Shown here piece after piece: positions 2,818-62,552 of a stretch of DNA of 64,000 bases; the stretch's first letter is position 1, and each line of letters starts with the position of its first letter. The stretch covers positions 389,152 through 453,151 of the forward strand of contig DYGI01000001.1 in assembly GCA_020724805.1 (NCBI GenBank), written 5' to 3'. Source of the DNA: Candidatus Microgenomatus sp. Its GTDB lineage: Bacteria > Patescibacteriota > Minisyncoccia > UBA6257 > GWB1-50-10. The notes under the pieces are model-generated. The model did no database searches and was not told where the DNA came from. It worked only from the letters and a program-made list of their open reading frames with translations. The position numbers were made by a program, and so were the translations under genes.

Positions 2818-2829
2818 CACGGATTCGCG

Positions 2830-3385
2830 TATGCCTATAATGGGTTTCACCTGCGCTGGGAGTGCTTTCCCCAATCGGCACCCCCTCTCGCAAGGGAGGG
2901 AGTCGGAAAGGGTAGAGCGAGAGCCTACCGCAGAACCGCACCTTTACAAGGTGAATCGCGACCACACGGGGACCGAAAGGTTTTCGTGCGAAGAGATCTC
3001 GGGGGTGACTAGGTTAGCCTCTCGGCGCCCGCACTCCTTAAACTGTGGATGGTACTGAAGAGAGATTCGTCTTCTGATTATCTTCACGCTTCTCTGAACG
3101 TGGTGTTGAGCTACGCTCGGAGGACGGTACGTGCAGGTATCATGCTGACGATAGACCCGAGGGCCTTTGAGCCCCAGTGTCGAAATAGAGGTGAGCCGCA
3201 AGGCCTTCTCTACTCCTTCGGTCCGGTCTGCACAGGGTTCCGCGAGACTCAATCTTGCGAGACTCCGATCTCACTGACGAACGTGCGTGGAAGCTCCATA
3301 AGGGCATCCGCGTACGCCTCATCTAGCTGCCGCTCCTATCTCGGGAAATCCTGGGAGAACGAGCGGCGCTTTTTTATTTCCTATA
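2830..3385 (+). other. long noncoding stretch, candidate structured RNA of unknown class
   Basis: No credible ORF in any frame over about 560 nt. Ends in a stem (ccgctc...gagcgg) plus T-run terminator on the + strand. Contains GC-rich helical segments. Not RNase P (see 62620-62970). Confidence 0.3.
3336..3385 (+). terminator. intrinsic terminator
   Basis: Stem ccgctc / gagcgg followed by cgcttttttatt. Confidence 0.55.
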
Positions 3386-3387
3386 CA

Positions 3388-3425
3388 TTGACATTTTTAG
3401 ATTAATATGATATTTTGTACACACG
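3388..3425 (+). promoter_or_regulatory. putative sigma70-like promoter for the small membrane protein gene
   Basis: TTGACA at 3389, then an AT-rich TATGAT/TATTTT -10 candidate; GGAGG SD before the ATG at 3460. Confidence 0.35.
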
Positions 3426-3459
3426 CAGTTTCACAATCCGGTCATCACGTGGAGGCACT

Positions 3460-3708
3460 ATGGGAAGTTTTCCCGTGTTCATATTCATCGCGGTCTGCGC
3501 AGTCTTCGTGACGGGGATCACTCTCGTCGTACGAAATCAGCTCCGGTGGGAAAGTGAACAAGCGTCCACAGCACCCGAAGAGGTTCGGCAAATGAAGCGC
3601 CGGAACTATCGCATTGTGGTCAGCGTTCTTGCTGGGACCTTCGTGCTGTTCCTCGCGTCGGCGGCGCTCGTATTCACCATTGTGAATCACGCGGCGTCCA
3701 CGCCATAG
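3460..3708 (+). CDS. small membrane protein (hypothetical, 82 aa)
   Basis: GGAGG SD 5 nt before ATG 3460; two hydrophobic helices. Confidence 0.5.
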   Translation: MGSFPVFIFIAVCAVFVTGITLVVRNQLRWESEQASTAPEEVRQMKRRNYRIVVSVLAGTFVLFLASAALVFTIVNHAASTP

Positions 3709-3718
3709 CGAACGCCCC

Positions 3719-3758
3719 ATTCCAATACATCGGAATGGGGCGTTTCACTTTGAGTAGG
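3719..3758. terminator. bidirectional hairpin terminator
   Basis: aacgccccattcc ... ggaatggggcgtt perfect 13-bp stem between convergent genes. Confidence 0.6.
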
Positions 3759-3762
3759 GGAT

Positions 3763-4071
3763 CTAAAGCGCGAGTATGAGGAGCACCGCGAGCGTGATAA
3801 TGAGGAGGAAGCTCACCGTATAAACCGCAAGCGTCACCGCATCGGAACGTTTCCCTTCCATGTACCACGCGACCGGGCGGCCAAAGACCGCAAGTGCGAG
3901 AATCGCGGCCGAAGAAGAGAAGAGGAGCAAGAAGCCCATAGGCGCCACGATATCTCCCGCTTTGCCGGCGAACTGTTCCGCGCCGCTCATAATAGCGGCG
4001 ACAAGCGCCACATAACAGGATGCGATGGCGGCATTCCCGAGCGCGTAGAGCGCTATCTTGTTTTTATTCAT
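3763..4071 (-). CDS. small membrane protein (hypothetical)
   Basis: Three hydrophobic helices. Start at the internal Met (MNKNK); a TATGATATAAT-like -10 lies upstream on the minus strand. Confidence 0.45.
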   Translation of the reverse strand: MNKNKIALYALGNAAIASCYVALVAAIMSGAEQFAGKAGDIVAPMGFLLLFSSSAAILALAVFGRPVAWYMEGKRSDAVTLAVYTVSFLLIITLAVLLILAL

Positions 4072-4104
4072 ATGAAAAATTATATCATACAGGCACTTCA
4101 CCTC

Positions 4105-4246
4105 GCCCTTAATTATAGGCTGAAGGTACTGAGGTTTTACTTCGTCGTTCCTCCTCAGTACCTTCTTCGCTATTTATCCATCAGTGCCATAGGCCCTGAT
4201 GAACGAAGTGAAGAAGGGCTGCGGGGGCTGAACGATGTTCGAACCT
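4105..4246 (+). repeat. island-boundary element copy 1 (13-bp hairpin plus tRNA-Gln 3'-end-like core at 4216-4245)
   Basis: About 100 nt of homology, with indels, to 53260-53400 in inverse orientation. Reverse complement of the core reads GGTTCGAACATCGTTCAGCCCCCGCAGCCC, resembling a tRNA-Gln T-loop and acceptor 3' end. Confidence 0.7.
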
Positions 4247-4252
4247 ACTTTA

Positions 4253-4912
4253 TCACGTCGTTATGGTTCCGAACAGTGATTCTGAAGTCGCGATTTGAGC
4301 GAGAATGCTAGTGTGCAGTTTTTTCACAGCGCTCACTATACGATGATCGCCAACGTATTGTTTAACTTGAGCTCTCACTTTATGGATCAAATCGTTCGCG
4401 ATTCCGAAACGACTCCACATATTCAATTCATCGTCTAGCGTGAGAGTTTCCGGGTTTTTATAAAGATTTGCAATGCACTCATAGTATTCGCGCATAACCG
4501 CTTTAGGTTCACCGTTTGGGGTTTCAATATAGGTGAGTGAATCACGTGCTATTTGCATATCGAAGTTTCTTACGTCCTCGATATCTTGCAGTATCTTTAC
4601 CGCAGTTCTTTTTATCCACATTTCTTCTCCCTGGTCACGCATTCCTTCATCTATACCTGGTATTGTCTCACTGATAGCGCTCGCTTGAACATCATCGTAG
4701 AGAAGATGTGAAAACCATCCCTTGCGAAAATCGCTGGTTCTGAATGAAAGATCTGTTTGGTATCCCTTTGGGTGTGTGGCGAGTCTGTTAATTTTTGTCA
4801 CATATCGGCTATCTGGGTATATTGAGCCGGAAATGTACGCGTCAGCATCTTTGACGGAGAGTAGATCCTTAACATCAAGAGCAAACCTTATATGTGATCC
4901 TTGGAGCGCCAT
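4253..4912 (-). CDS. hypothetical protein (219 aa), island cargo
   Basis: Long ORF in AT-rich DNA; bracketed within 8-9 nt at each end by the direct repeats at 4216-4245 and 4921-4948. No recognisable motif. Confidence 0.5.
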   Translation of the reverse strand: MALQGSHIRFALDVKDLLSVKDADAYISGSIYPDSRYVTKINRLATHPKGYQTDLSFRTSDFRKGWFSHLLYDDVQASAISETIPGIDEGMRDQGEEMWIKRTAVKILQDIEDVRNFDMQIARDSLTYIETPNGEPKAVMREYYECIANLYKNPETLTLDDELNMWSRFGIANDLIHKVRAQVKQYVGDHRIVSAVKKLHTSILAQIATSESLFGTITT

Positions 4913-4920
4913 AAACTTTT

Positions 4921-4948
4921 TGCTGCGGGGCTTAAACGACGTTAGAAC
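4921..4948 (+). repeat. island-boundary element copy 2 (partial, core only)
   Basis: tgctgcggggcttaaacgacgttagaac, about 75% identical to 4216-4245. Its reverse complement ends CCCCGCAGCA, like the tRNA-Gln(CTG) 3' end. Confidence 0.6.
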
Positions 4949-5021
4949 TTATTTCCTTTCGACAAGTACCATTCATTAATAAAAATGGGTTCTACCCAAT
5001 TAGGGACATTGATTCTAATTA

Positions 5022-5528
5022 CTAAAAGACATAAATAACCTTTCCTATAATATCGTCTACCTGTTTAACGCCCAATATCGAATTCTCGTTATCACCTTTT
5101 TGGAACACCTCTCCATCGTTGAGATCAAAGCGTAAGATGGTGTCTGGTTTTATAATGTCCAACTCCGAAGCTGAAGAGTTTGGGAAAAGCGTTTTTTCTC
5201 CATTAACTGTGATAGTTTTATTTTCATCTATCACCACTTGATCGCCGGCGACACCGATAATCCTATGTATCCAGGGATCATAAACTGTTTCCTTCGTTAG
5301 CTTGTTTATAAGTGGCGTACCAAACATTACTATGTCGTTTCGTCTGACATTTGATAATAAGTAATGGATTCTACTTACCATCACGTAGCTTCCCTTATCA
5401 ATGGTTGGTTCCATTGAATCTCCTGCTACGTAGTGTATTGGGAAAAAAATTCTCACAAATAATCCAAGAAGAAAGAGAACCCCAATTACGTAGAAGGTGA
5501 ATCTTTTCCAAGGCTTTTTGGTCTGCAT
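5022..5528 (-). CDS. lepB: signal peptidase I (S26 family)
   Basis: N-terminal TM, catalytic Ser motif GDSMEPT, RIIGVAGD box. Confidence 0.8.
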   Translation of the reverse strand: MQTKKPWKRFTFYVIGVLFLLGLFVRIFFPIHYVAGDSMEPTIDKGSYVMVSRIHYLLSNVRRNDIVMFGTPLINKLTKETVYDPWIHRIIGVAGDQVVIDENKTITVNGEKTLFPNSSASELDIIKPDTILRFDLNDGEVFQKGDNENSILGVKQVDDIIGKVIYVF

Positions 5529-5549
5529 TGCTAGTTCTGCTTTATTTGA

Positions 5550-5819
5550 TTATAGGAAAAAATACGAAACGAAAGCCGAAAAGCTTGCCAGTAAATAACC
5601 AACTCCAGCAATGAAATTGATTGCCCGATTATCTTGGTTGAGAGTATCGAGGTATGCGTTAAAATCATTGATAAATTCTTCAATACCAAGTGGCACACCA
5701 TTAAAGGTTTTTACCCCTCCTTTATTTGAAAAGGGAGCGATTTTTTGAAAACTTCTCCAGAAATGATAAATCGCCAAAGCAAGAAATGAAAATGTAAATA
5801 TTATCCAAATGTACTTCAT
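5550..5819 (-). CDS. small membrane protein (hypothetical)
   Basis: Internal start MKYIWIIF; two TM helices. Confidence 0.4.
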   Translation of the reverse strand: MKYIWIIFTFSFLALAIYHFWRSFQKIAPFSNKGGVKTFNGVPLGIEEFINDFNAYLDTLNQDNRAINFIAGVGYLLASFSAFVSYFFL

Positions 5820-5972
5820 GGCTGGGAGGCTTGGGAGCGAACAACGCTCGTATTCACTCGCGTTCACAAAACCCTCGGTTTTGTGTCCACTATCGTTCAA
5901 TCCGACACGGAAGGGACACAAAAGGTTTCCCTTCCGACCCATCCCTCACTTAAATCGTCAGATTTAAGTCCA

Positions 5973-6002
5973 GATTCATGGCTTCAAAGGCCGCTGTCCT
6001 AT
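5973..6002. repeat. tRNA-Gln fragment (anticodon-arm region) duplicate
   Basis: agattcatggcttcaaaggccgctgtcctat matches tRNA positions 6068-6100 with one mismatch. Confidence 0.7.
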
Positions 6003-6046
6003 AGACAAGGGAGTGAGGAAATGGAAAGCGTCACTCCTGCGCACCG

Positions 6047-6117
6047 CTGGGAGGCTTGGGATCGAACCAAGATTCACGGCTTCAAAGGCCGCTGTCCTAC
6101 CATTAGACGACCTCCCA
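6047..6117 (-). tRNA. tRNA-Gln (anticodon TTG)
   Basis: Cloverleaf: acceptor TGGGAGG/CCTCCCA, D-arm GTCT/GGAC, anticodon loop CTTTGAA, T-arm CTTGG-TTCGATC-CCAAG, discriminator G. U1-A72 is typical of bacterial tRNA-Gln. Confidence 0.85.
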
Positions 6118-6193
6118 GCGGTGCGCACGAATGTGTAATTGTCGAGGAACGTTTTCTATTTCCGAGCGAGCGCCGTATGTATGGCGAAACCAT

Positions 6194-6212
6194 ACCATTA
6201 GACGACCTCCCA
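6194..6212. repeat. tRNA-Gln 5'-end fragment duplicate
   Basis: accattagacgacctccca identical to tRNA positions 6099-6117. Confidence 0.7.
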
Positions 6213-6237
6213 ATGCCATTTCTTTATACTGTAACTG

Positions 6238-6861
6238 ATGGAATTCGCAACTTGGCTTATGGTGGAACTTCCGGTGATAGGGGAATGGGTGCTCGCGCTC
6301 GCTGCGGGAGCCATCTATTTTTCTTTTTCTCGTCGTGCTCCCGCGCATAACGTAACGCGTATGCGGCAAGTATTCATCGCGGCCGTCGCGGTGATTTTCG
6401 GGGTCGCCGCGCTTTCCACGTTCCTGCAGTATTCGGTTTGGAAAGCCGACCAATTCTCACAAAACTTCCTTCCCCCGCATCAGTCGATTCTGTATTTTGC
6501 AAAGTATGCCGGCACGCACTTCTGGCTCACCCCGGTCCTTTCGCTCGTCATTGCCGGCGCGTTTTTTTTGTTCCTCCACGTGCTCGCGCGAAAAAACGAA
6601 AGGTTCTTCGAAGAGGGTGAAATTGAGCTGGGCGCTCTCGCCGCTTTGCTTGCAGGATGGCCTGGGTTCGTGATTTTTCTTCCCGCTGTCTTTCTTGCAG
6701 TCGTCGTCATTTCCGGGGCAAAACTGATGCTGCAAAAAAGCGCTTACACCACGCTAGGACTTCCGCTTCTTGTCGGACTTTTTGTGGCGTTGGTGTGGGG
6801 AGACGCCACCCTCCGTCTCGTGGGACTTGGGCTTCTCGCGGTTATTCCCGGCGCGCGCTAA
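6238..6861 (+). CDS. polytopic membrane protein, possibly divergent prepilin-peptidase-like (A24)
   Basis: 6-7 TM helices. EIELGALAALLAGWPG resembles the GxGDVKLLAALGAWLG block of PilD-type peptidases, but the Asp is replaced, so the call is weak. Confidence 0.3.
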   Translation: MEFATWLMVELPVIGEWVLALAAGAIYFSFSRRAPAHNVTRMRQVFIAAVAVIFGVAALSTFLQYSVWKADQFSQNFLPPHQSILYFAKYAGTHFWLTPVLSLVIAGAFFLFLHVLARKNERFFEEGEIELGALAALLAGWPGFVIFLPAVFLAVVVISGAKLMLQKSAYTTLGLPLLVGLFVALVWGDATLRLVGLGLLAVIPGAR

Positions 6862-7975
6862 GTCCCTCGATAATCGCCACCTCAAGCGGAATAAGAGGGA
6901 ACTGACTGTAACGCATCTGGCTGTAGGCGCGGATGAACGTTTTGATGAGCTCAAGGTGTTCCGGCGCGAAAAGCTTGGCGTGCGTAAGAAGGGTTTTCAT
7001 GTGTTCGTCGGTAAGCTCGGCTGCAAATTTCTTCTCCATCGCGGGTTGATAGGAAAGCACCGCCACTCGACGGAGATATTGCACCACGTCCTTGGTGAAC
7101 TGCAGCAAACTGTAGCCGCCGTCTTGAATTTCCTCCACGCGCGCAAGCGCGTCGTCGAGATTCTTGCGGAGTAGGAGTTCGACGAATCCCGACAGCTTTG
7201 TGAACGCCACCTTTCCTATCATTTTCTCCACATCTTCCACCGAAAGTTCTTTCCCGCGGAATGTAATAAGTTGGTCGAAAAGAGATTCGGCATCGCGGAA
7301 ACTTCCTTCTGCCGCCGAGGCGATAAGGTCAAGTGCTTCCTCGCTCGCTTTCACACTCTCGGCTTTCGCCACCATCGCAAGTTTCTCGGCTATCTCATCG
7401 CGAGTCACCGAGCGAAAATGGAACGTTTGAGTGCGCGAGGTGATGGTGGGCGGAACCTTTTCCACCTCCGTGGTGGCAAGAATGAGAATCACTTGTGCCG
7501 GCGGTTCTTCCAGCGTCTTCAAAAGCGCGTTCCACGCATCTTTCGAAAGTTGATGCGCCTCATCGAAGATTATTATCTTGTAGCGCCCCATTGAAGGCGC
7601 GGCGCGGAGATTTTCTTTGAGCTCACGGATGTCGTCGATGCCGCGGTTCGAGGCCGCATCGATCTCCATTACGTCCAAAAAGCGTCCCTCGTCTATTTCA
7701 CGGCACGCGGTGCACTGATTGCACGGCTCACCCTTCGCGCGGAACTTCTCATCCTTCGTTCGTGTTTCGCAATTCGCAATCTTTGCGATAAGGCGCGCGG
7801 TGGTGGTTTTTCCGGTGCCGCGAGGACCCGCGAAGAGATACGCGTGCGCTAAGTTACCCGTCTTCGCCGCCTCCTTCAGTATCCGCACGGTAAGCTCCTG
7901 GCCCAAGAGCGCATCGAATGTCGCCGGCCGATATTTTCGGTAGATTGCGAGTGCCATCGGTTTCATTATACGCAT
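6842..7975 (-). CDS. dnaX: DNA polymerase III subunit gamma/tau
   Basis: Walker A GPRGTGKTT, Zn-module CNQCTACREI, DEAH-like IFDEAHQLS, SRTQ sensor. Confidence 0.9.
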   Translation of the reverse strand: MRIMKPMALAIYRKYRPATFDALLGQELTVRILKEAAKTGNLAHAYLFAGPRGTGKTTTARLIAKIANCETRTKDEKFRAKGEPCNQCTACREIDEGRFLDVMEIDAASNRGIDDIRELKENLRAAPSMGRYKIIIFDEAHQLSKDAWNALLKTLEEPPAQVILILATTEVEKVPPTITSRTQTFHFRSVTRDEIAEKLAMVAKAESVKASEEALDLIASAAEGSFRDAESLFDQLITFRGKELSVEDVEKMIGKVAFTKLSGFVELLLRKNLDDALARVEEIQDGGYSLLQFTKDVVQYLRRVAVLSYQPAMEKKFAAELTDEHMKTLLTHAKLFAPEHLELIKTFIRAYSQMRYSQFPLIPLEVAIIEGLSARRE

Positions 7976-8069
7976 GTTTTTTGCATCGGCGCACGGATTG
8001 ACGATTTTGCCGCTTTGTTATACGAAATAGGTAGCACCCACCATCAACGTACGAAAGGAGACGTCCATT

Positions 8070-17195: not shown

Positions 17196-18317
17196 AACAC
17201 CTTTCGCATCGCACTTACGGGAGGAGGTACCGGCGGACATGTATTTCCGCTCGCCGCGGTTGCCGATGAATTGCTGCGCATGGGGCAGGGGACCGTGGAA
17301 CTTCGCTACTACGGGCCTACGAGCGTATGGAATGAGATGCTCGCGGCGCGCGACATTCGCACTTCGCATATCGCGGGCGCAAAGCTCCGCCGCTATGCGT
17401 CGTTGCAAAATATTATCGACATCCCAAAGTTTTTTATCGGCCTACTCGAGGCGTTCGTAAAGCTCTATTTCTGGATGCCGGACGCGGTGTTTTCAAAAGG
17501 AGGTCCGGGCGCGTTGCCGGTTGTGTGCGCGGCCGCATGGTATCGAATTCCCATCGTGGTCCATGAATCGGATGCAGTGCCGGGACTCACGAACCGCATC
17601 TCGGCAAAATTCGCGAAAAAGATTTGTATAGCGTGGCGAAACGCTGCGGCATATTTCCCTGCGCGGAAAGTGATGGTCACCGGAAACCCGATACGTGCCG
17701 CGCTTGCGACTACCATGTTGGAGCGGCGTGCGGCAAAATCGCAACTCGGCGCGGACCCGGATACGCCTCTCCTCCTTGCGCTTGGAGGTTCGCAGGGCGC
17801 AAAAATATTGAACGACTTTGTGGACGCGGCGCTCCCGATGCTTCTTGCGCTCTGCCAGGTGTATCACCAGACCGGGAAGGGGAACGTGCCTTCCGTGAGC
17901 GACCATATGGGCGCTCGTCCCGCCGCACCTTCGCGGTATACCGCGCGGGATTTTATGGATGAACGGGAGCTTGCCACTGCGCTTCGTGCCGCCGACCTCG
18001 TGCTCACGCGGGCAGGTGCAGGCGCGATCTATGAATGTGCGGCTGCGGGCGTTCCCGCCATTCTTGTACCGCTCGCAAATGGCGCGAACGATCACCAAAG
18101 AGCGAATGCGGCCGAGTATGTCGCTTCGGGCGCCGCATTGGTCATTGAAGAAAACAATCTTACTCCGAACCTCGTGGCGGGAGAAATAAAAAAACTTCTC
18201 GCGGGCGGCGAGAAGTTGAAAATGATGGGGGAGAGGGCGCGCGCATTTTTTAAACCAAGCGCCGCAGAGGAAATCGCACGCGCAATCGTTACGGCGACCG
18301 GTGCTCAAATCAAATAA
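17193..18317 (+). CDS. murG: undecaprenyldiphospho-muramoylpentapeptide beta-N-acetylglucosaminyltransferase
   Basis: N-terminal GGGTGGHVFP motif, GT28 family architecture. Confidence 0.9.
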   Translation: MNTFRIALTGGGTGGHVFPLAAVADELLRMGQGTVELRYYGPTSVWNEMLAARDIRTSHIAGAKLRRYASLQNIIDIPKFFIGLLEAFVKLYFWMPDAVFSKGGPGALPVVCAAAWYRIPIVVHESDAVPGLTNRISAKFAKKICIAWRNAAAYFPARKVMVTGNPIRAALATTMLERRAAKSQLGADPDTPLLLALGGSQGAKILNDFVDAALPMLLALCQVYHQTGKGNVPSVSDHMGARPAAPSRYTARDFMDERELATALRAADLVLTRAGAGAIYECAAAGVPAILVPLANGANDHQRANAAEYVASGAALVIEENNLTPNLVAGEIKKLLAGGEKLKMMGERARAFFKPSAAEEIARAIVTATGAQIK

Positions 18318-31982: not shown

Positions 31983-32066
31983 GCGCGGGTGGTGGAACTG
32001 GCAGACACACTACCTTGAGGTGGTAGCGCCCGCAAGGGCTTGGAGGTTCGAATCCTCTCCCGCGCA
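31983..32066 (+). tRNA. tRNA-Leu (anticodon GAG)
   Basis: Acceptor GCGCGGG/CCCGCGC, anticodon loop TTGAGGT, long variable arm, T-arm GGAGG-TTCGAAT-CCTCT, discriminator A. Confidence 0.85.
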
Positions 32067-32099
32067 CAGATGAAATATTCAATACCCTCGTGGTATTGG

Positions 32100-32232
32100 A
32101 TATTTTATTTTGGTGCGAGGATTCGAACAGGGAAGGGGTCGGGAAACCGTAGAAGAGAGGTTTCCCGTGCCGGAAGTACTGAAACCGAAGGGTTTCAGGG
32201 AGCGAGTGGATGAGAGCGACGTTCGATTCCCT
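32100..32232. repeat. tRNA 3'-end-derived fragments (recombination scar)
   Basis: 32100-32121 is the reverse complement of a T-loop plus acceptor 3' end (ccctgttcgaatcctcgcacca). 32205-32232 (gttcgattccctctcccgcgcacca) repeats the tRNA-Leu 3' end including CCA. Two 8-bp hairpins lie between. Neither fragment has a matching 5' acceptor or D-arm. Confidence 0.55.
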
Positions 32233-32263
32233 CTCCCGCGCACCATTTCGTTATAATGTGCCT

Positions 32264-49053: not shown

Positions 49054-49124
49054 TGCGGGATCGTCTAATGGTAGGACGTCTGGCTCTGAACCAGAAAATT
49101 GGGGTTCGATTCCCTGTCCCGCAG
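49054..49124 (+). tRNA. tRNA-Gln (anticodon CTG)
   Basis: Acceptor TGCGGGA/TCCCGCA, D-arm GTCT/GGAC, anticodon loop CTCTGAA, T-loop TTCGATT, discriminator G. Confidence 0.8.
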
Positions 49125-49261
49125 CATTAGGACTAAATAGTCCTAAAATACCCACCGGAGAGGTGGGGTTCGCGTTTTAGTACGACTCCGTGTACGTTTT
49201 TTCCCTTTTCGGCATTCCTACCCCCGTTATATTCTCCTCTCGGCACTCTTAGAGTCTGAAG

Positions 49262-49477
49262 GTGAACAGGTTCCCGTACCAAATCACCAATACGCTTAGA
49301 GAACATAGGAAGGCTGTAGGATTGAGTCAGCAGAAGGTGGCGGCTGCCTTGGGGATACAGGACAACACTCTTATTTCTCGATGGGAGCGGGGCGCAGCTC
49401 TCCCCTCTCTCGTGAGCGTATACCGACTCATGGAGCTCTATAGGGCTACGTTTGAGGAGTTGTTTCCGAAGGTCTAG
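49262..49477 (+). CDS. XRE-family helix-turn-helix transcriptional regulator
   Basis: LSQQKVAAALGIQDNTLISRWERG is a classic Cro/C1 HTH. Confidence 0.75.
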   Translation: MNRFPYQITNTLREHRKAVGLSQQKVAAALGIQDNTLISRWERGAALPSLVSVYRLMELYRATFEELFPKV

Positions 49478-49593
49478 TAAAGCGATGATTTTACGATTTC
49501 TTGAACAAAACCACTAGTTGCAAAAATGCTTGATAACCCTTATCTTTTTCTAAATCCTAAAGCACAATTTGCTATAGTTAGAAATGAAATCTG

Positions 49594-50280
49594 ATGACGG
49601 AAAAAATCTTCGTTCAAAGATTAAAAAAGATTTTTAAGCAGGACGGATACCTCGTTAGAGAGGAAATCGGTGTGGGGCACGGTATAGCAGATTTAGTTTT
49701 AATTAGGGGCAGCAGGATCAACCAACGACACGTCGAGCTAAGAAAAAGCTATCGCCAGTTGTCTCCTCTGCTTAAGGAAGAGTATTTCCGCACGCTAAAT
49801 GTAATACCCGATCAGCCAGGGAAAGCATCGCTAGATCTAATTGTAAAAAAAACCCACTTATCCAAGCCTTATCTGAAATACTCCATCCTTAGAACGCTTG
49901 AGAAAAAGGGATATATCAAGTCGAACGGAGAGAACCATTATTTTAAGATTAACGGTTGGGTTCCACTAACAAGCGAACTAATTGCAGTGGAAGCAAAACT
50001 AAAGGACTGGAAAAGAGGACTCATCCAAGCGAATCGATATAAGATCTTTGCAAACAAAGTTTATTTGGCAATTCCTTCCTCTCATGCTCACCTCGTGGAC
50101 AGAAAGATGTTGAGAAAACATGGAATCGGACTAATCACATTAGATATAGTGAGCGGGAAGAAAAATATCCCACTCCGTGCAAGTCATAATATACCCGCGA
50201 ATTTACCTCGCAGTAACTTTGCAGTTGAACATTTCTGGGGAAAACAGATCTACAAACGAGCAGAGGCGCGGCCAATCTAG
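49594..50280 (+). CDS. hypothetical protein, possible PD-(D/E)xK-fold nuclease with central wHTH
   Basis: GHGIADLVLI ... IAVEAKLKDW fits a D...ExK arrangement; weak. Confidence 0.35.
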   Translation: MTEKIFVQRLKKIFKQDGYLVREEIGVGHGIADLVLIRGSRINQRHVELRKSYRQLSPLLKEEYFRTLNVIPDQPGKASLDLIVKKTHLSKPYLKYSILRTLEKKGYIKSNGENHYFKINGWVPLTSELIAVEAKLKDWKRGLIQANRYKIFANKVYLAIPSSHAHLVDRKMLRKHGIGLITLDIVSGKKNIPLRASHNIPANLPRSNFAVEHFWGKQIYKRAEARPI

Positions 50281-50714
50281 GATATTTTCGAAAACGCTTG
50301 AGTAAACTTTTCGGGAGATATTGTGCGCACGTCTCCAAACCTTCCTATATCAAGTAAATCTCTATCGCGGGTGATGATAATTTTTGCGGCGCAAGTCCTC
50401 GCAACTCTTACGTATTCATCATCGTCAGGGTCCCTCTGAATGTAGCGTGCTAACTTCTCAGTGGAATTCGGCTCTACCATATTTACGAATGCTCTATAGT
50501 CCAAGATAATTTTTTCAGGACTAAATATTTGCCTTTTCAGATATTTCTGAAGCCTACCAATCTGAATTTTTTCGCAGAACTCTTGGTAGGTCGCCGAACT
50601 GCCGAATATTAATATTCTTTTTTCTAGCGCCCAATTAATAATTCTTCTTGTTGGGCCAGGCGTCCCCAACATACCCGAAATGAGAATGTTCGTATCCGGC
50701 ACTACCTTGATCAT
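50277..50714 (-). CDS. PIN-domain nuclease (TIGR00305-like toxin family)
   Basis: N-terminal VVPDTNILISGML and conserved acidic residues (..ARTCAAKIIITRDRDLL). Start overlaps the stop of the TGT-like gene by 4 nt. Confidence 0.7.
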   Translation of the reverse strand: MIKVVPDTNILISGMLGTPGPTRRIINWALEKRILIFGSSATYQEFCEKIQIGRLQKYLKRQIFSPEKIILDYRAFVNMVEPNSTEKLARYIQRDPDDDEYVRVARTCAAKIIITRDRDLLDIGRFGDVRTISPEKFTQAFSKIS

Positions 50715-51880
50715 GAGTCAAGCTCGGATAGTAACGTTTTCAGTTCGTCATCATCACCAGGAAACTCCCATGTCTTTGCCAAATCTAGAACAGCCTTCCA
50801 ACGAGGAAGGTAGGCTGTCTTTACCCCAATGGCGCGAGACCGCAACTTCGAAGTTAACTGAATAGCATCATCGACCCGCTTAGACAGGACACTTATCCGT
50901 TTCTCTTTCGTTAAATTTTGAAGAGATTGAACACTTGATAATCTCGTGTGAAGAAAGTGTAGCTTTTTAGCCGCCACTTCTTTGGGGTATGACCCACCAC
51001 ACGCCGGACAATTACAGGAGTATTTTATCTTCTTCAGATCTTGATCGTTGAGATAATCAAAAATCTCCGGCACGTATGTTTTTTCGATTCGCTTACTCCA
51101 TCCCTTAGGCGTACTTTGAAGATTCTTCACGACGAACATTTCTCCCGCTGCCAGACCGCTTCCAAAGCCGCTTGCACCTACTGCACAAAGAACCTCACCA
51201 AATGGACCGATTTTATTGGCAAAGACCACACTCCCCTCCGAGAGACGGAATGCTAAGCGGGCAAATTCTAAGAGTGAGTCTTGGTCGGCACTTTCACAAT
51301 CTAGATCATTTATCACAACTATATAACCGTCTAACGAGTCACGAAAATCCTCTTTATACCTATCAATGATGTAATTGATGACCGTGGGTCGATTAAGAAT
51401 AGAGCTTCCCAATTTCAGCATCGCAAAAACCGGAATTTCTTGTTTTGTCTCCTGAAGATAGCGCAACGTTTCTGACAGCATGGAAATATTAACACCAAAT
51501 TTTAGGTCGTCGGTATCTTCACAAAAAAAATAAGGAGCTATCATTACTGATGCCTGTTTACGGAACTGGTCTTGTACGGCAATCTGAACAATCTTCTCCT
51601 TACGAAAACCGGGGTCACTGTAAACTTTTTCCGCGTTAACTTCATTTGGATATCCCAGTCTTTTAAAATTCTCCCCTTCACTCGCATCCTTGAATAGCAG
51701 GATGTCTGTCGAGGGGTCTATGATAAATACGTCTGATATCGCCCTTAATTTCTCAGCGACTTTTGGACGCCACTCCGAATGTCTTGTATCCATAAGCACG
51801 GCAGGAAAGCGGAATCCTAGTGATTCCAAGTGTCCGTCCTGTGCATTCGGCAAAAAGATTGGTGTTTTCGGTATCAACAT
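50711..51880 (-). CDS. tRNA-guanine-transglycosylase (TGT) superfamily-like zinc-binding protein (DpdA/TGT-like); catalytic Asp possibly missing
   Basis: N-terminal KTPIFLPN resembles TGT ETPCFMPVGT. LDGYIVVINDL resembles FDGYAVGGLAVGE. C-terminal CNCPAC-(13 aa)-HFLH resembles the TGT zinc site CDCYTC...YLHHL. The GIDMFDCV nucleophile region aligns to GEMFVVKN. Confidence 0.45.
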   Translation of the reverse strand: MLIPKTPIFLPNAQDGHLESLGFRFPAVLMDTRHSEWRPKVAEKLRAISDVFIIDPSTDILLFKDASEGENFKRLGYPNEVNAEKVYSDPGFRKEKIVQIAVQDQFRKQASVMIAPYFFCEDTDDLKFGVNISMLSETLRYLQETKQEIPVFAMLKLGSSILNRPTVINYIIDRYKEDFRDSLDGYIVVINDLDCESADQDSLLEFARLAFRLSEGSVVFANKIGPFGEVLCAVGASGFGSGLAAGEMFVVKNLQSTPKGWSKRIEKTYVPEIFDYLNDQDLKKIKYSCNCPACGGSYPKEVAAKKLHFLHTRLSSVQSLQNLTKEKRISVLSKRVDDAIQLTSKLRSRAIGVKTAYLPRWKAVLDLAKTWEFPGDDDELKTLLSELDS

Positions 51881-52005
51881 TCTTCGTTCTTTCTATTAGA
51901 GAAGATTGTCGGTACAAAATATACAATAAAATTCCTTGCTTGGAAAGCGTTATGTATCGCCGCTATTTAGAACACCCCCTCGGTAGGGGGTGTTCTGTCT
52001 GGCGC

Positions 52006-52275
52006 TTAGGTATCTTTGCTGATCGCCTGTATGGTTTCGGCTGCTGGGCCTAAAGCGTTTACTATCTCTATTTTTTCCTTTCCATAATGATCCCTCAAGC
52101 CCTTTAAGAGTTCGTCAGCATAAGAAGGCGTTAGGACCTCTACGCCAGAAAAGTCTAAAACAATATTCTCCTTGTCCGCTGAGCCGTTGATAATCTGTCG
52201 CAGACGCAAAAGCGCCTCCCTACCGGTAGGTCTACCATTCAGCACAGTTCCAAATTTTTGCATCATTACCGTCAT
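52006..52275 (-). CDS. STAS-domain protein (anti-sigma-factor-antagonist-like, DUF4325-type)
   Basis: ...ENIVLDFSGVEVLTPSYADELL... is the typical STAS beta-alpha core; 89 aa. Confidence 0.55.
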   Translation of the reverse strand: MTVMMQKFGTVLNGRPTGREALLRLRQIINGSADKENIVLDFSGVEVLTPSYADELLKGLRDHYGKEKIEIVNALGPAAETIQAISKDT

Positions 52276-52281
52276 ATGATT

Positions 52282-53124
52282 TCACTTGTATTCTATCACA
52301 ACTGACGCCAGCGTCCCTAAGATACGATTCACTACGGATGACTTTTGCCCTTGTTCATCCACGACTACTAATCCCTCCCCAGAATGCACTCTGACTTTAC
52401 CATTAAACTTGTTAATTGTCCAGTCCTGAACGAGCCTCAACCCATTGCCGCGTTTCTCCCCCACTCTTCCCGTTACACCTGTTAGTCCAAGCTGTATCGC
52501 ATCGACATCGTTAGCTAGATTAGGATCACGAACCTTTAAGGAACCGAGGAAGCCAATCCCCGGGTCTGCAATGGCAATCTCAATGAACTTCTTCTCAGGA
52601 TAATTCTGTGCGACCATGATCGCCCCGCCAACATTCGTTGGCCACACTCCTTCATTGTGATCAAAAACATTGTTTCCGAGCTCACCGATAAGCGAGGTAA
52701 CCCGTTGTTCATCTTCCCCACGCAGGCCGAAGTTCCTGAGCATTAAGCGGATATTAGAAGAAAGACGCGCATTGAATTCATCCCTGTAGGTGCAGTGGAG
52801 TATCTCGTGTAGGTTTAGGTTCGGATGCTCGACCATTGGAAGAGAGTTCAATGGCGCAAGAAACGCACCGTATCCCATTGCGTCCATAAACTGAGGGAAG
52901 TGAATTCTCTTCAAATACGTCAAGACATCGTGGTGCTTAGGCAATACGAGTTCTTTCTTTGGTTGATCTTTTAGCTCAATCGCCCTTAAACAAATCATGC
53001 CAACGCCCCAGGGCTCGCACCACCCCGCTTTACTCAAATCAATAACATCCCCGTTAAACCATCCAGCATCCCGGCTGTAAATCTCACCAAATCCAAGTCT
53101 CATGATGGCTAAAGTATAAGCCAT
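52282..53124 (-). CDS. GHKL-family ATPase (RsbW/SpoIIAB-like kinase fold) with N-terminal extension
   Basis: N-box ELGNNVFDHN, G1 DPGIGF, G2 GLTGVTGRVGEKRGNGL. Pairs with the adjacent STAS gene. Confidence 0.55.
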   Translation of the reverse strand: MAYTLAIMRLGFGEIYSRDAGWFNGDVIDLSKAGWCEPWGVGMICLRAIELKDQPKKELVLPKHHDVLTYLKRIHFPQFMDAMGYGAFLAPLNSLPMVEHPNLNLHEILHCTYRDEFNARLSSNIRLMLRNFGLRGEDEQRVTSLIGELGNNVFDHNEGVWPTNVGGAIMVAQNYPEKKFIEIAIADPGIGFLGSLKVRDPNLANDVDAIQLGLTGVTGRVGEKRGNGLRLVQDWTINKFNGKVRVHSGEGLVVVDEQGQKSSVVNRILGTLASVVIEYK

Positions 53125-53259
53125 CTGAAACCGCTGCGTAAATGAACGGCATGGCTAGAACTTGTCTAATCCGGCAACTTCTCCCTCCTTGCCGTCCCCT
53201 TCCGCTCCCCTATACTGGACGCGTAGTCAATTGAGGAATATCTTCCTCGGCATACAAAA

Positions 53260-53400
53260 GGTTCGAACATCGTTCAGGCCCCGCAGCCCTTCTTCGCTTC
53301 GCTCATCAGGGCCTATGGCATCTCTTGAGCGAAGAAGGCACTGAGGAATCCTGAGTATGAACGAAGGACGACGAAGTGATAAAATTCGCTTGTGAGTCAC
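53260..53400 (-). repeat. island-boundary element copy 3 (tRNA-Gln 3'-end-like core 53260-53292 plus conserved hairpins)
   Basis: GGTTCGAACATCGTTCAGGCCCCGCAGCCC then ccttcttcgc...gaagaagg hairpin. About 93% identical over 64 nt to the reverse complement of 4190-4246. Confidence 0.7.
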
Positions 53401-53640
53401 TTCGTTTATATTCTCACATGTGCCGATGGTTCACTGTACGTGGGATGTACCAATAACCTTGAACGTAGAATAAAGCAACACAACGATTCTAAGTGGGGCG
53501 CACACTATACAAAACTAAGACGCCCCGTAGCACTTGTGCACCAAGAAGAATTTCCAACCTTACGTGAGGCGCGACGACGAGAAACTGAAATCAAAGGTTG
53601 GCGCCATGAGAAGAAACTAACACTCATTAATAAGACCTAA
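53392..53640 (+). CDS. GIY-YIG nuclease domain protein
   Basis: FVYILTC...SLYVGCTNNLERRIKQH; GTG start; low GC. Confidence 0.7.
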   Translation: MSHFVYILTCADGSLYVGCTNNLERRIKQHNDSKWGAHYTKLRRPVALVHQEEFPTLREARRRETEIKGWRHEKKLTLINKT

Positions 53641-53685
53641 TTTATCTTTTACCGCGGATATATCTCGGTATGCTCTAAAAATATT

Positions 53686-62477: not shown

Positions 62478-62481
62478 AATG

Positions 62482-62552
62482 AGCCAGTGAGAGGAATCGA
62501 ACCTCCGTCTTCGCTTTACGAAAGCGTTGCTCTGCCATTGAGCTACACTGGC
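62482..62552 (-). tRNA. tRNA-Thr (anticodon CGT)
   Basis: Acceptor GCCAGTG/CACTGGC, D-arm GCTC/GAGC, anticodon loop TTCGTAA, T-arm GGAGG-TTCGATT-CCTCT, discriminator T. Confidence 0.8.

Follow-up and report, generated by a model that had tools for sequence, protein, structure and literature searches.

The locus behind the tRNA-Gln(UUG) gene of this Candidatus Brennerbacteria (Patescibacteria) contig raises the question of how low-GC DNA, repeats and pieces of the tRNA itself came to lie together there. Within the window (the whole 64,000-nt stretch that was analysed) GC content is 37-45% across ~4100-5850, which we call island A, as against 52-59% on both sides, in agreement with the earlier note's view of an island. 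At the entry site it adjoins DnaX and a membrane protein of 207 aa without a Pfam match, and its distal boundary lies at ~4089, on the upstream side of a 102-aa gene that has three different upstream neighbours in three relatives. The relatives' contigs break on that side, their similarity to the region of the 102-aa gene starting only at ~4072-4088, and those compared there have no sequence in common with 4089-6045. Taken together, the analyses shown here suggest that the region 4089-6212 is probably a composite insertion hotspot at tRNA-Gln(UUG), put together by at least three kinds of event.

All three ORFs of island A lie on the minus strand, in the same orientation as the tRNA, and start 0-9 nt past a core, and they fall into two candidate cassettes. 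The first gene of cassette 1 (5550..5820 in the ORF list, GC 37-40%) encodes a 90-aa protein with two hydrophobic segments, for which Pfam gives a sub-threshold DUF2871 match only; the 130-aa ORF called from the ATG at 5942 crosses the structured module described below and is probably too long. The second gene (5022..5528, GC 38%) encodes a 168-aa signal peptidase I (MEROPS S26), with a Peptidase_S26 match in Pfam (E = 3.8e-20, 72.9 bits against a cut-off of 22.9) and a GDSMEPT motif containing the catalytic Ser, so that the extra signal peptidase and small membrane protein of the earlier note are both present. Its box-D position has IHRIIG, in which His replaces the Lys of P-type enzymes, a pattern that we take to be of the SipW/ER type. 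A terminator scan places a terminator-like hairpin after it (4998-4986). Cassette 2 (4253..4912) encodes a 219-aa all-alpha protein belonging to a Patescibacteria-wide family of ~210-aa proteins, the genes of its homologues lying in unrelated chromosomal contexts; in fold it may be a distant relation of zinc-dependent phospholipase C and the S1/P1 nucleases. A Pfam scan of all island A ORFs found no integrase, transposase or recombinase domain, and no integrase or transposase was evident when the ORFs of the window were inspected by eye. Three public contigs carry the 219-aa gene, all identical to the window, with no empty-site or circular-junction contig among them; pattern scans of metagenome and genome collections, which do not include the source contig, gave no hit, and the case for cassette mobility is thus wholly comparative.

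The 219-aa gene is bracketed by a direct repeat, R1 (4218..4250, minus strand; in tRNA sense AAGTAGGTTCGAACATCGTTCAGCCCCCGCAGC) and R2 (4922..4954, minus strand; AATAAGTTCTAACGTCGTTTAAGCCCCGCAGC), which we read as the distal and cassette junction sites, respectively. They share 26 of 33 positions, a score above any obtained from 200 first-order shuffles of 3400-7000, in which the top direct match between 33-mers averaged 22.1 and peaked at 25, and lie 2 nt from the stop codon and, in the case of R2, 9 nt upstream of the ATG, which confirms the bracketing described in the earlier note. Its further proposal that the repeats resemble a tRNA-Gln 3' end holds for the last 9-10 nt only, and for the CTG isoacceptor rather than the adjacent TTG gene. 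The match is to the CTG type at 49116-49125 (G.CCCGCAGC), with 10 of 11 positions shared between the R2 core GCCCCGCAGCA and the tRNA-Gln(CTG) 3' end GTCCCGCAGCA. We rejected R as a tRNA 3' half, since GTTCGAAC is out of register with the T-loop and no T-arm can form. R also folds at only -1 kcal/mol, which is poorer than its shuffled versions (z = +1.7 to +1.8; +1.7 for R2). The 8-mer CCCGCAGC alone has three further chance occurrences in the window, so the tRNA resemblance of R rests on context and on conservation over five copies. Moreover, CTG-type cores at a TTG locus require either cross-use of two similar tRNA-Gln ends or later rearrangement.

R is a recurring site of ~30 nt (27-33 nt), with five copies in two genomes, each lying behind a tRNA-Gln gene in low-GC DNA that varies. 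The left two-thirds (GTTC[T/G]AAC[G/A]TCGTT..) are common to the cassette family, and the right 9-10 nt equal the tRNA-Gln 3' end. In the 64-kb window the R1/R2 consensus finds exactly one further site (R3, 53261-53287, other strand; expected 0). Two more copies lie behind the tRNA-Gln(CTG) of the related contig L064, each with an ATG 0-1 nt further on, and there R separates single genes (CYTH, methyltransferase), one copy and its neighbour bracketing the CYTH gene alone; the array has the same co-oriented layout as island A, with ORFs starting just past the core, and a Pfam scan of two of its ORFs gave no recombinase domain. R3 and its flank (53256..53391, plus strand) form the distal end of a second low-GC island, island B (49126 to ~53650, downstream of tRNA-Gln(CUG)), and are followed by an 82-aa GIY-YIG gene (53392-53640; Pfam E = 4e-19); here, where a short HTH-like ORF also lies at 49270-49477, the Pfam scan covered five larger ORFs and the GIY-YIG ORF and found no recombinase domain in them. 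R1 itself is not a free-standing 30-mer and instead forms the end of a ~96-nt repeat common to both islands (4152-4247 against 53259-53347, 82/96 identical, E = 2e-26). The ORF-free flank after R1 (4089..4217, minus strand), homologous to the sequence after R3 (53288 to ~53347), is predicted to fold (z = -4.8 in island A and -2.1 in island B), and it is not conserved host DNA here, since the similarity of relatives begins only at ~4072-4088.

Comparison with relatives shows that what lies behind these tRNA genes changes from genome to genome. In L063 the order is tRNA-Gln(CTG), a 171-aa gene and obg, with no R3, flank or GIY-YIG gene. At tRNA-Gln(TTG) the cargo is low in GC in each of three related genomes and differs between them: the small membrane protein, signal peptidase and 219-aa gene in the window; a GNAT gene in L005, flanked by a 54-nt direct repeat beginning within the tRNA's final 6 nt; and in the sister species L004 a low-GC NYN-like ORF, behind a tRNA whose T-loop is fused to a foreign 3' end of Gln(CTG)-like type. 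This difference in cargo supports the cassette reading. The suggestion of serial integration or a cassette-like unit therefore gains from R3, the recurrence in L064 and the variable cargo, and is weakened by the lack of an integrase or excision product among the sequences searched.

A second set of observations concerns the tRNA-Gln(UUG) gene itself (6046..6117, minus strand; called by ARAGORN, 62.8 bits with the Rfam tRNA model). It is intact but does not encode CCA, the discriminator G being followed by CGG, and a 23-nt inverted repeat (I1, 6032-6054 and 6111-6133, 91% complementary) lengthens its acceptor stem. The earlier note had described duplicated pieces of its anticodon arm and 5' end, and both are real. 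Fragment B (5972..6001, minus strand; 29/30 identical to 6070-6099) corresponds to about positions 19-48, that is the 3' side of the D arm, the anticodon arm and the variable loop, and fragment C (6193..6212, minus strand; 20/20 identical to 6098-6117) to positions 1-20, that is the 5' acceptor strand and D arm. We also found a fragment that had been overlooked, fragment A (5821..5842, minus strand; 21/22 identical to 6046-6067, the lone mismatch at T-loop position 58), which is a displaced copy of positions 53-73. In tRNA sense it is followed by a CCA overlapping the ATG of the next ORF (CCCAG-CC-ATG), a layout that is native in relatives at the tRNA-Leu of L062 and the tRNA-Gln(CTG) of L064. 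Fragments B and C have the dinucleotide TA in common and so join exactly, and A, B and C tile one whole second tRNA-Gln(TTG). Fragment C is followed by a hairpin (GTATGG-TTTCG-CCATAC) and, with a 75-nt spacer, is 89% conserved in L004 at 18010-18161; the pair is not found upstream of the tRNA-Gln(TTG) of L005. From its retention in L004 and absence from L005 it follows that the event behind C predates insertion of the module. The fragments thus do not simply record repeated recombination at this tRNA as had been suggested: C marks an older event, and A and B flank one specific structured mini-element. A 44-nt spacer (6002..6045, minus strand) separates the intact gene from fragment B, and behind the tRNA-Gln(TTG) of L004 and L005 nothing corresponds to it; it is presumably part of the inserted mini-element, which would also have supplied the tRNA from the T-loop onward.

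The core of this mini-element is a structured module of ~130 nt, newly catalogued here and without an Rfam family, that we read as a miniature integrase-less integrative element. The copy at tRNA-Gln (5843..5971, minus strand) has a degenerated left inverted-repeat arm (IR-L) and has lost the closing helix; it matches our covariance model at 5827-5963 with 107.6 bits, folds with z = -5.3 and is identical at 51 of 55 positions to a copy beside tRNA-Gly on the same contig. A copy downstream of tRNA-Leu(GAG) (31983-32067) was found with the same model (32111..32245, plus strand; 100.3 bits over 32114-32236) and consists of IR-L (32111-32128), the core, and a displaced tRNA-Leu 3' end with CCA (32221-32245), and its core is 93/97 identical to a copy at tRNA-Ser(GCT) in metagenome contig L058. 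At each of these three tRNAs of this genome the module lies between the intact tRNA and a displaced 3' end of the same tRNA, and in metagenomes it occurs at other tRNAs and once at rpmG. The sample comprises only nine sequences from eight distinct loci (three copies on the contig and six loci that fitted the pattern in the metagenome scan, where L056 and L059 represent the same locus in two strains). A copy that had no part in training the model scores 77 bits. Across the sample 90% of cells are paired and 17 of 35 pairs show compensatory changes, values reached by none of 500 shuffles. With every target, IR-L is the reverse complement of the beginning of the displaced copy of that target. The displaced tRNA ends have a native look, with CCA and then ATG as in L062; the ends of the intact genes have no CCA. 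In the rpmG case, 9 of 56 nt distinguish the functional 3' end from the displaced one and every change is synonymous, which is the mark of an element that brings in a surrogate end for the gene from a different lineage. The module is not present at the tRNA-Gln(TTG) of L004 or L005 or at the tRNA-Leu(GAG) of L062. Scans with Rfam 15 (cmscan) of the window at 3000-8000 (E <= 5) and of L055, L057, L058 and L060 (E <= 1) returned tRNA and chance matches only. The module would explain two (A and B) of the three tRNA fragments.

In the sequence of events that we favour, two low-GC cassettes, the small membrane protein with signal peptidase I and the 219-aa protein, possibly phospholipase C/P1-nuclease-like, would have inserted successively where the tRNA sequence ends on its 3' side, leaving R sites as junctions. 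With their ORFs 0-9 nt past the core, copying the native CCA/ATG overlap, the cassettes should be readable from the tRNA transcript. Later a mini-element of ~225 nt may have entered the T-loop, supplying a replacement tRNA 3' end, the spacer and the module, and pushing what had been the 3' end (fragment A), together with the attached cassette array, ~225 nt downstream. Fragment C would be the residue of an older event. What the data show directly are the repeats and how they recur, the covariation of the module, the differing cargo of relatives and the limits of the islands; both this order and site-specific recombination by a recombinase encoded elsewhere are our inference from these comparisons. 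Two further points count against the scheme: a circle of ~200 nt is small for recombinase-mediated integration, and fragment B has no parallel within the other module copies.

Other readings of the same data must be weighed here. R could be a conserved 5' leader or promoter-proximal element of the gene to its right, with the bracketing of the 219-aa gene a by-product of two such neighbours. Consistent with this, each copy lies 0-9 nt before an ATG or before the shared flank that leads to a gene, a promoter-like TTGCCG-16 nt-TATACT precedes R3 and one L064 copy, and the terminator-like hairpin stands between the signal peptidase gene and R2. However, R has neither a Shine-Dalgarno sequence nor RNA structure, its 3' end is that of tRNA-Gln, and all its copies sit behind tRNA-Gln in variable DNA of two genomes. 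Native genes here also begin directly after real tRNA ends, so the look of a leader is expected from a tRNA-end junction too, and although we judge the leader reading unlikely as a replacement for junctions, the two are compatible. We likewise think it improbable that the module is immobile, a small RNA gene passed on vertically to the benefit of the host (for example to mimic a tRNA end, or for processing or regulation), with the tRNA fragments as functional parts. Strong covariation on the tRNA-sense strand, intrinsic terminator-like hairpins right after the displaced fragment in L058 and L060, which fit a discrete transcript, and module copies at three of the five tRNA genes seen on the contig all speak for it. 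Against it are the module-free tRNA-Gln(TTG) and tRNA-Leu(GAG) genes of relatives, a 96%-identical core at tRNA-Leu here and tRNA-Ser in another contig with the arms exchanged, the synonymously diverged duplicate at rpmG and the loss of the closing helix in the Gln copy. An element that is mobile and also encodes a structured RNA fits the observations on either side.

There is also the reading that no dedicated element was involved, and that the tRNA fragments and R arose by local duplication, slippage and illegitimate recombination at a fragile tRNA locus. Fragments C and B around the intact gene do have the look of a nested duplication, L058 has an analogous nested tRNA-Glu, and the genes around both tRNA-Gln genes stand in a rearranged order from one relative to another. 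Such events would not place the same ~130-nt core at unrelated tRNAs and rpmG in different organisms or one R site in two genomes, and they leave the foreign low-GC cargo unaccounted for. Recurrence across genomes largely refutes this reading, and we regard it as very improbable.

The composite hotspot that we prefer has parallels among known systems. Among these are islands that target tRNA genes, with tandem accretion at tDNA (Reiter 1989; Williams 2002; Islander database; reviewed in PMC9897764). Similar to these, the locus has an intact tRNA gene with a displaced partial 3' copy (fragment A, 21/22), compositionally deviant foreign DNA with cargo that varies among relatives, junctions between successive insertions that repeat the tRNA end, and crossovers at the known T-loop and 3'-end sublocations. 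Unlike islands of the tyrosine-integrase type, no integrase gene was found among the scanned ORFs of either island here, the units are tiny (~0.7 kb with a single gene, ~0.9 kb with two, ~200 nt with none), and the identity segment of the cassette site is only ~10 nt and matches the other tRNA-Gln isoacceptor. The mostly single, co-oriented ORFs, each just past a short recombination core and arrayed behind one fixed entry site that allows transcription, recall integrons (IntI, attI, attC). However, no intI is adjacent here, the entry site is a tRNA gene end, and R (27-33 nt, unfolded, with no RYYYAAC/GTTRRRY cores) differs from attC sites, which are imperfect palindromes of 57-141 bp that fold single-stranded, so the locus is integron-like in its working but falls outside that family. 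Cis-mobilisable or miniature integrative elements (CIMEs, as of ICESt1/ICESt3) are bounded by attL- and attR-type repeats, carry no recombination genes and use a recombinase supplied in trans, as the module family would have to; the latter differs in its ~200-nt size and strongly covarying internal structure. To our knowledge, neither these features nor a target-complementary arm that changes with the target have been described for CIMEs.

The module also resembles the RNAs of RNA-guided recombination, a likeness that we take only as a lead. The bridge or seek RNAs of IS110/IS1111 elements (PMC11208160) and the omega RNAs of TnpB/IscB are scaffolds of 100-180 nt at the edge of a mobile unit, and like them the module combines a conserved scaffold with a short copy-specific segment complementary or identical to the insertion target. 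In contrast to IS110-type insertion, the module's target is duplicated, over 16-56 nt, and its complementary arm forms a closing helix with the flanking target copy and is not an internal loop as in bridge RNAs. No DEDD/RuvC-type recombinase or TnpB-like gene is seen beside any of the nine module copies, nor any ORF as large as a DEDD-type recombinase, the neighbours being tRNAs, rpmG and ordinary genes. It is nevertheless conceivable, though we hold it doubtful, that the module is the guide-and-scaffold RNA, or a folded single-stranded DNA, of a new protein-less miniature element with IR-L as its programmable part, and that copies of tRNA ends serve as cassette entry sites. The left arm would then be the complement of its target, either the stretch of a tRNA from T-loop to acceptor or the rpmG end, the surrogate 3' end would keep an essential target gene intact, and a recombinase encoded elsewhere in the very small genome would move the element.

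Patescibacteria have tiny genomes, and their gain of genes is poorly understood. Small integrase-less cassettes stacked behind tRNA-Gln, with start codons exactly where native genes abut tRNA ends, suggest a simple platform for gene capture, and for expression by way of the tRNA transcript. If the element is mobile as proposed, it would be a new small model of target-programmed insertion, and if it is not, the module still accounts for tRNA fragments otherwise annotated as pseudogenes or generic att scars. Should the guided-element reading be true, there would be nucleic-acid-guided insertion unrelated to IS110 bridge RNAs and OMEGA RNAs, and an integron-like capture of genes based on tRNA ends in Patescibacteria.

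The window is part of a metagenomic contig of 570,864 bp (JGI 3300029893, Ga0246236_1000004). By DnaX, the nearest genomes to that of the window are MAGs of Candidatus Brennerbacteria, L004 (JAZDNP01, 88%) and L005 (JACPEK01, 83%); an exact-protein search with DnaX gave no match. Four tRNA genes lie in the window, those for Gln(UUG) (6046-6117, minus strand), Leu(GAG) (31983-32067, plus strand), Gln(CUG) (49054-49125, plus strand) and Thr(CGU) (62481-62552, minus strand). Island A, the region at tRNA-Gln(UUG) from 4089 to 6212, is low in GC, with 37-45% at about 4100-5850 compared to 52-59% outside. Read in the sense of the tRNA, it starts with a copy of the tRNA 5' end (fragment C) and a spacer, followed by the intact tRNA-Gln(UUG), 44 nt, an anticodon-arm copy (fragment B), the core of a structured module and a 3'-end copy (fragment A); then come genes for a small membrane protein and a signal peptidase I, the repeat R2, the 219-aa gene, R1 and a structured flank, with the 102-aa host gene next. 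The ORF at 5022-5528 (minus strand) is a Peptidase_S26 signal peptidase. Bacterial P-type signal peptidases have a catalytic Lys at box D; the island protein has IHRIIG at this position, with His in place of the Lys, which is the SipW/ER-type pattern. At 2818-3459 about 640 nt are without a called gene or convincing ORF, while the genome is otherwise compact, and this stretch has no Rfam match; msrA adjoins the 102-aa gene in relatives, and a degraded msrA here was ruled out, as tblastn shows no remnant.

The direct repeat around the 219-aa gene that the earlier note described is real: R1 (4218-4250) and R2 (4922-4954) share 26/33 identities, a number reached by 0 of 200 shuffles, and the ORF (4253-4912, minus strand) lies 2 nt and 9 nt away from the two copies. 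A search of the window with the R1+R2 consensus found one further site where none is expected by chance, R3 (53261-53287), sited at the distal end of another low-GC island, one that starts at the tRNA-Gln(CUG) 3' end. Moreover, R1 is the start of a repeat of about 96 nt that had been missed (4152-4247 and 53259-53347, 82/96 identities, E = 2e-26), whose second copy lies 49 kb off on the opposite strand. In L064, a relative obtained via the 151-aa protein adjoining tRNA-Gln(CTG), two more R copies stand downstream of that tRNA, directly 5' of the ATG of a CYTH gene and of a methyltransferase gene (so identified in a precomputed Pfam table), and the CYTH gene is bracketed by R just as the 219-aa gene is in the window. 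L065, compared with L064 for strain-level polymorphism, has the same sequence. Exact-pattern scans for R in metagenome and genome contig collections, which do not contain the source contig, gave no match, and the flank adjoining R was not found in viral contigs. The shuffles and the additional copies rule out a chance repeat.

The five copies have the consensus GTTC[T/G]AAC[G/A]TCGTT[C/T]Annc[C/T]CCGCAGC. The likeness to a tRNA-Gln 3' end proposed earlier stands for part of R only: when the copies are right-aligned, the final 10-11 nt are the tRNA-Gln(CTG) 3' end (10/11 in R2), but in the remainder the GTTC motif is in the wrong register for a T-loop and a T-arm is impossible. With no T-arm register, and no tRNA at these sites by ARAGORN or Rfam, R is neither a genuine 3' half of a tRNA nor a pseudo-tRNA. 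An integron attC is excluded as well by the short length of R and by its failure to fold as RNA (z = +1.7 to +1.8). A clue to what R might be comes from native tRNA genes in these genomes, in several of which the tRNA end is overlapped or closely trailed by the ATG of the next gene: tRNA-Leu of L062 ends ...GCGCACC-ATG (5279-5370), tRNA-Gln(CTG) of L064 ...GCAGCC-ATG (3417-3410) and a tRNA of L063 ...GCAGCCCTT-ATG (1526-1515). This layout is matched by R followed by ATG, and by fragment A followed by CC-ATG (5821-5815), and we therefore read R as a hybrid junction, with a cassette-family arm on the left and a tRNA-end core on the right. Each cassette ORF would then sit where a native gene would be read off the tRNA transcript. 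As a separate observation, protein genes in these genomes often begin on or a few bases after the encoded tRNA 3' end, and no Shine-Dalgarno sequence was found at those starting there in L062, L064, L063 and the window, a layout that suggests tRNA-mRNA co-transcripts which may be processed into near-leaderless mRNAs.

Comparison with relatives bears on whether the islands arose by insertion; for island A, the earlier note had suggested serial integrations at one att site or a cassette-like mobile unit. At tRNA-Gln(TTG), L005 has an intact tRNA and then a low-GC GNAT gene set between the copies of a 54-nt direct repeat (74% identical), the start of which falls within the tRNA's last 6 nt. In L004 (18107-18175) the tRNA-Gln(UUG) is a chimera whose 5' part runs, from the T-loop on, into a foreign 3' end, TTCGAATCCAGGTCCGGCAG; this acceptor is Gln(CTG)-like and cannot pair with the 5' part. 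ARAGORN calls nothing here as a tRNA, and downstream lies an NYN-like ORF of low GC. A small GIY-YIG gene of L004 ends 20 nt upstream of its fragment C homologue. The two tRNA-Gln ends are alike (AAGCCTCCCAGC vs CTGTCCCGCAGC, with R2 reading AAGCCCCGCAGC), and CTG-type R cores at the TTG locus are awkward for a cassette reading, but L004 is direct evidence that recombination can bring an element end of the Gln(CTG) type into the TTG gene. On the other side of island A, similarity to the 102-aa membrane-protein gene sets in among relatives only at about 4072-4088; upstream of this gene, L066 has obg, L067 a divergent typA, and L068 and L069 other sequence. The contigs of these relatives tend to break there, and L005 and L068, which come from one genome, are contigs that end on either side of the island A locus.

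At tRNA-Gln(CTG), L063 has the tRNA, a 171-aa gene and then obg, and is without island B, R3, the flank and the GIY-YIG gene. In the window this second low-GC island follows tRNA-Gln(CUG) directly (49126-53650) and holds a short HTH-like ORF (seen by eye), a 228-aa ORF, a PIN_3 protein, a 389-aa ORF and a DUF4325 (STAS-like) protein paired with a 280-aa ORF, then R3, the flank and an 82-aa GIY-YIG gene; its gene content looks defence-like. The structured flank after the last R is common to both islands (4089-4217 and 53288-53391, inverted, 49 kb apart). It is not conserved host DNA of either locus, as relatives have nothing in common upstream of the 102-aa gene and L063 lacks the flank downstream of tRNA-Gln(CTG). 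Beyond its two copies lie the 102-aa gene on one side and GIY-YIG/obg on the other; since obg is directly followed by the 102-aa gene in L066, a chromosomal rearrangement with breakpoints at the R-plus-flank sites is also possible. Members of the family of the 219-aa gene occur across Patescibacteria; in other genomes they stand in a VanY...SdrD_B neighbourhood, or directly behind a deoxyribosyltransferase-like gene, or directly behind an MFS transporter gene, and none of the genes called around them is a tRNA. Pfam shows no recombinase domain in the island A ORFs, the scanned island B ORFs or the two L064 array ORFs, and every public contig with the 219-aa gene is identical to the window, so mobility of the cassettes is inferred from comparison alone. 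Serial integration, or a cassette reading of the islands, is supported by these comparisons, but neither a recombinase nor an excision product was found.

The tRNA fragments point to a further element. The copies of the anticodon arm (fragment B, 5972-6001, 29/30) and of the 5' end (fragment C, 6193-6212, 20/20) are as earlier reported, and there is a third, overlooked until now, fragment A (5821-5842), with 21/22 matches to the tRNA 3' end. Fragment C and its 75-nt spacer are shared with L004 (89% identity), so that C predates insertion of the module. The sequence past fragment A, in the tRNA-upstream direction, recurs at tRNA-Gly(CCC) on the same contig (L001 18929-19131, about 4-5 kb past the window start), where it lies between the tRNA and a displaced copy of its 3' end to which it is fused; the ATG of a 215-aa gene with normal GC follows 4 nt after this copy. 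A further occurrence lies downstream of tRNA-Leu(GAG) (32068-32247, plus strand), with a terminator hairpin, a left inverted-repeat arm (IR-L, 32111-32128), the core and, fused to it, a copy of the tRNA-Leu 3' end that is displaced and carries CCA (32221-32245); about 17 nt on begins the next ORF. The module is thus present at 3/5 tRNA genes seen on this contig. The pattern from these three copies matched six metagenome contigs, two of which, L056 and L059, are strains of one locus where the upstream tRNA has decayed, while the other four matches follow a tRNA gene (Trp, Glu-CUC, Ser-GCU and Glu-UUC). The order is constant: an intact tRNA with its own 3' end (X1); a short spacer, often with a terminator hairpin; IR-L, the reverse complement of tRNA positions ~54-69; a core of two hairpins, a variable hairpin and the motif CGAGTGnATnnGAGCGnnGTTCG; and X2, which repeats the same tRNA in sense orientation from about position 59 on, as far as the discriminator. 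The cores of the Leu copy and of the copy at tRNA-Ser(GCU) in L058 are identical at 93/97 positions, with arms that vary with the tRNA. The Gln copy of the window has a decayed closing helix, and fragment B, a 30-nt tRNA piece, sits in its spacer.

RNAalifold applied to an alignment of eight module sequences gives a consensus of 35 pairs, 17 of them with compensatory changes; 90% of the cells are paired compared to 80% in shuffles and 35-52% in slid controls, and the observed covariation was reached by 0/500 shuffles. The module has no match in Rfam 15, its three patterns were not found in viral contigs, and we found no prior description of such elements in the literature. A covariance model regains all copies and one outside the training set (L055 1037-1171, 77 bits), which sits behind rpmG rather than a tRNA. 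Behind this module the final 56 nt of rpmG are present a second time; the two ends have 9 differences, all synonymous, and where the second copy starts, its sequence is the reverse complement of IR-L. Elsewhere on L055 (1410-1680, minus strand), a tRNA gene with anticodon CAU, not called by ARAGORN, is apparently interrupted in or next to the anticodon loop by about 220 nt that could be a group I-type intron.

An origin of the displaced ends by reverse transcription drew on CCA following the discriminator in 3/8 fragments and on a homology break at T-loop position 58, as in tRNA-primed cDNA. We reject it, since CCA is encoded in 7/28 native tRNA genes of these genomes, a CCA overlapping an ATG is the native layout in L062, and the rpmG copy cannot be tRNA-primed. 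Nor is the module an insertion-bearing T-loop from a second copy of the tRNA, since IR-L reaches into the acceptor-strand complement in L060 and the Leu copy and so is a true inverted repeat. A hammerhead or other known ribozyme is excluded too: Rfam gives no match, and the GAUGAG-like motif is not conserved. X2 of the Gln, Leu and Ser copies has CCA, like the module-free tRNA-Leu of L062, whereas the 3' ends within the intact genes next to the module lack it, so that the displaced ends look native; no module accompanies tRNA-Gln(TTG) in L004 or L005, or tRNA-Leu in L062. L056 and L059 are 95% identical as far as the final base of X2, beyond which they carry differing, mostly low-GC stretches of 1.5 kb and 7.5 kb before they converge, the same pattern of variable DNA attached to a displaced end as in island A. 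An intact tRNA nested in its own broken copy is common to C-tRNA-B of the window and to L058, where a tRNA-Glu copy (620-830) is split in the anticodon loop by about 135 nt holding an intact tRNA-Glu(UUC) between the inverted repeats CACCCCGCACCTTTT and AAAAGGTGCGGGG; the window tRNA-Gln is likewise flanked by an inverted repeat (6032-6054 and 6111-6133).

Taken together, the most economical reading is that the module is part of a miniature integrative element of about 200 nt, which would carry a surrogate 3' end for its target together with the structured module and would insert at the T-loop, pushing the original 3' end away. The cassette array of island A is joined to fragment A rather than to the intact tRNA, as it should be if the element entered the T-loop of a tRNA that had the cassettes behind it by then. 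In place of the repeated recombination at this tRNA to which the earlier note put down the fragments it described, we read A and B as flanking a copy of an uncatalogued family of structured mini-elements, a more specific and also more interesting account of the two. Within this family the feature of greatest note is that the target-complementary arm changes with the target while the core stays constant.
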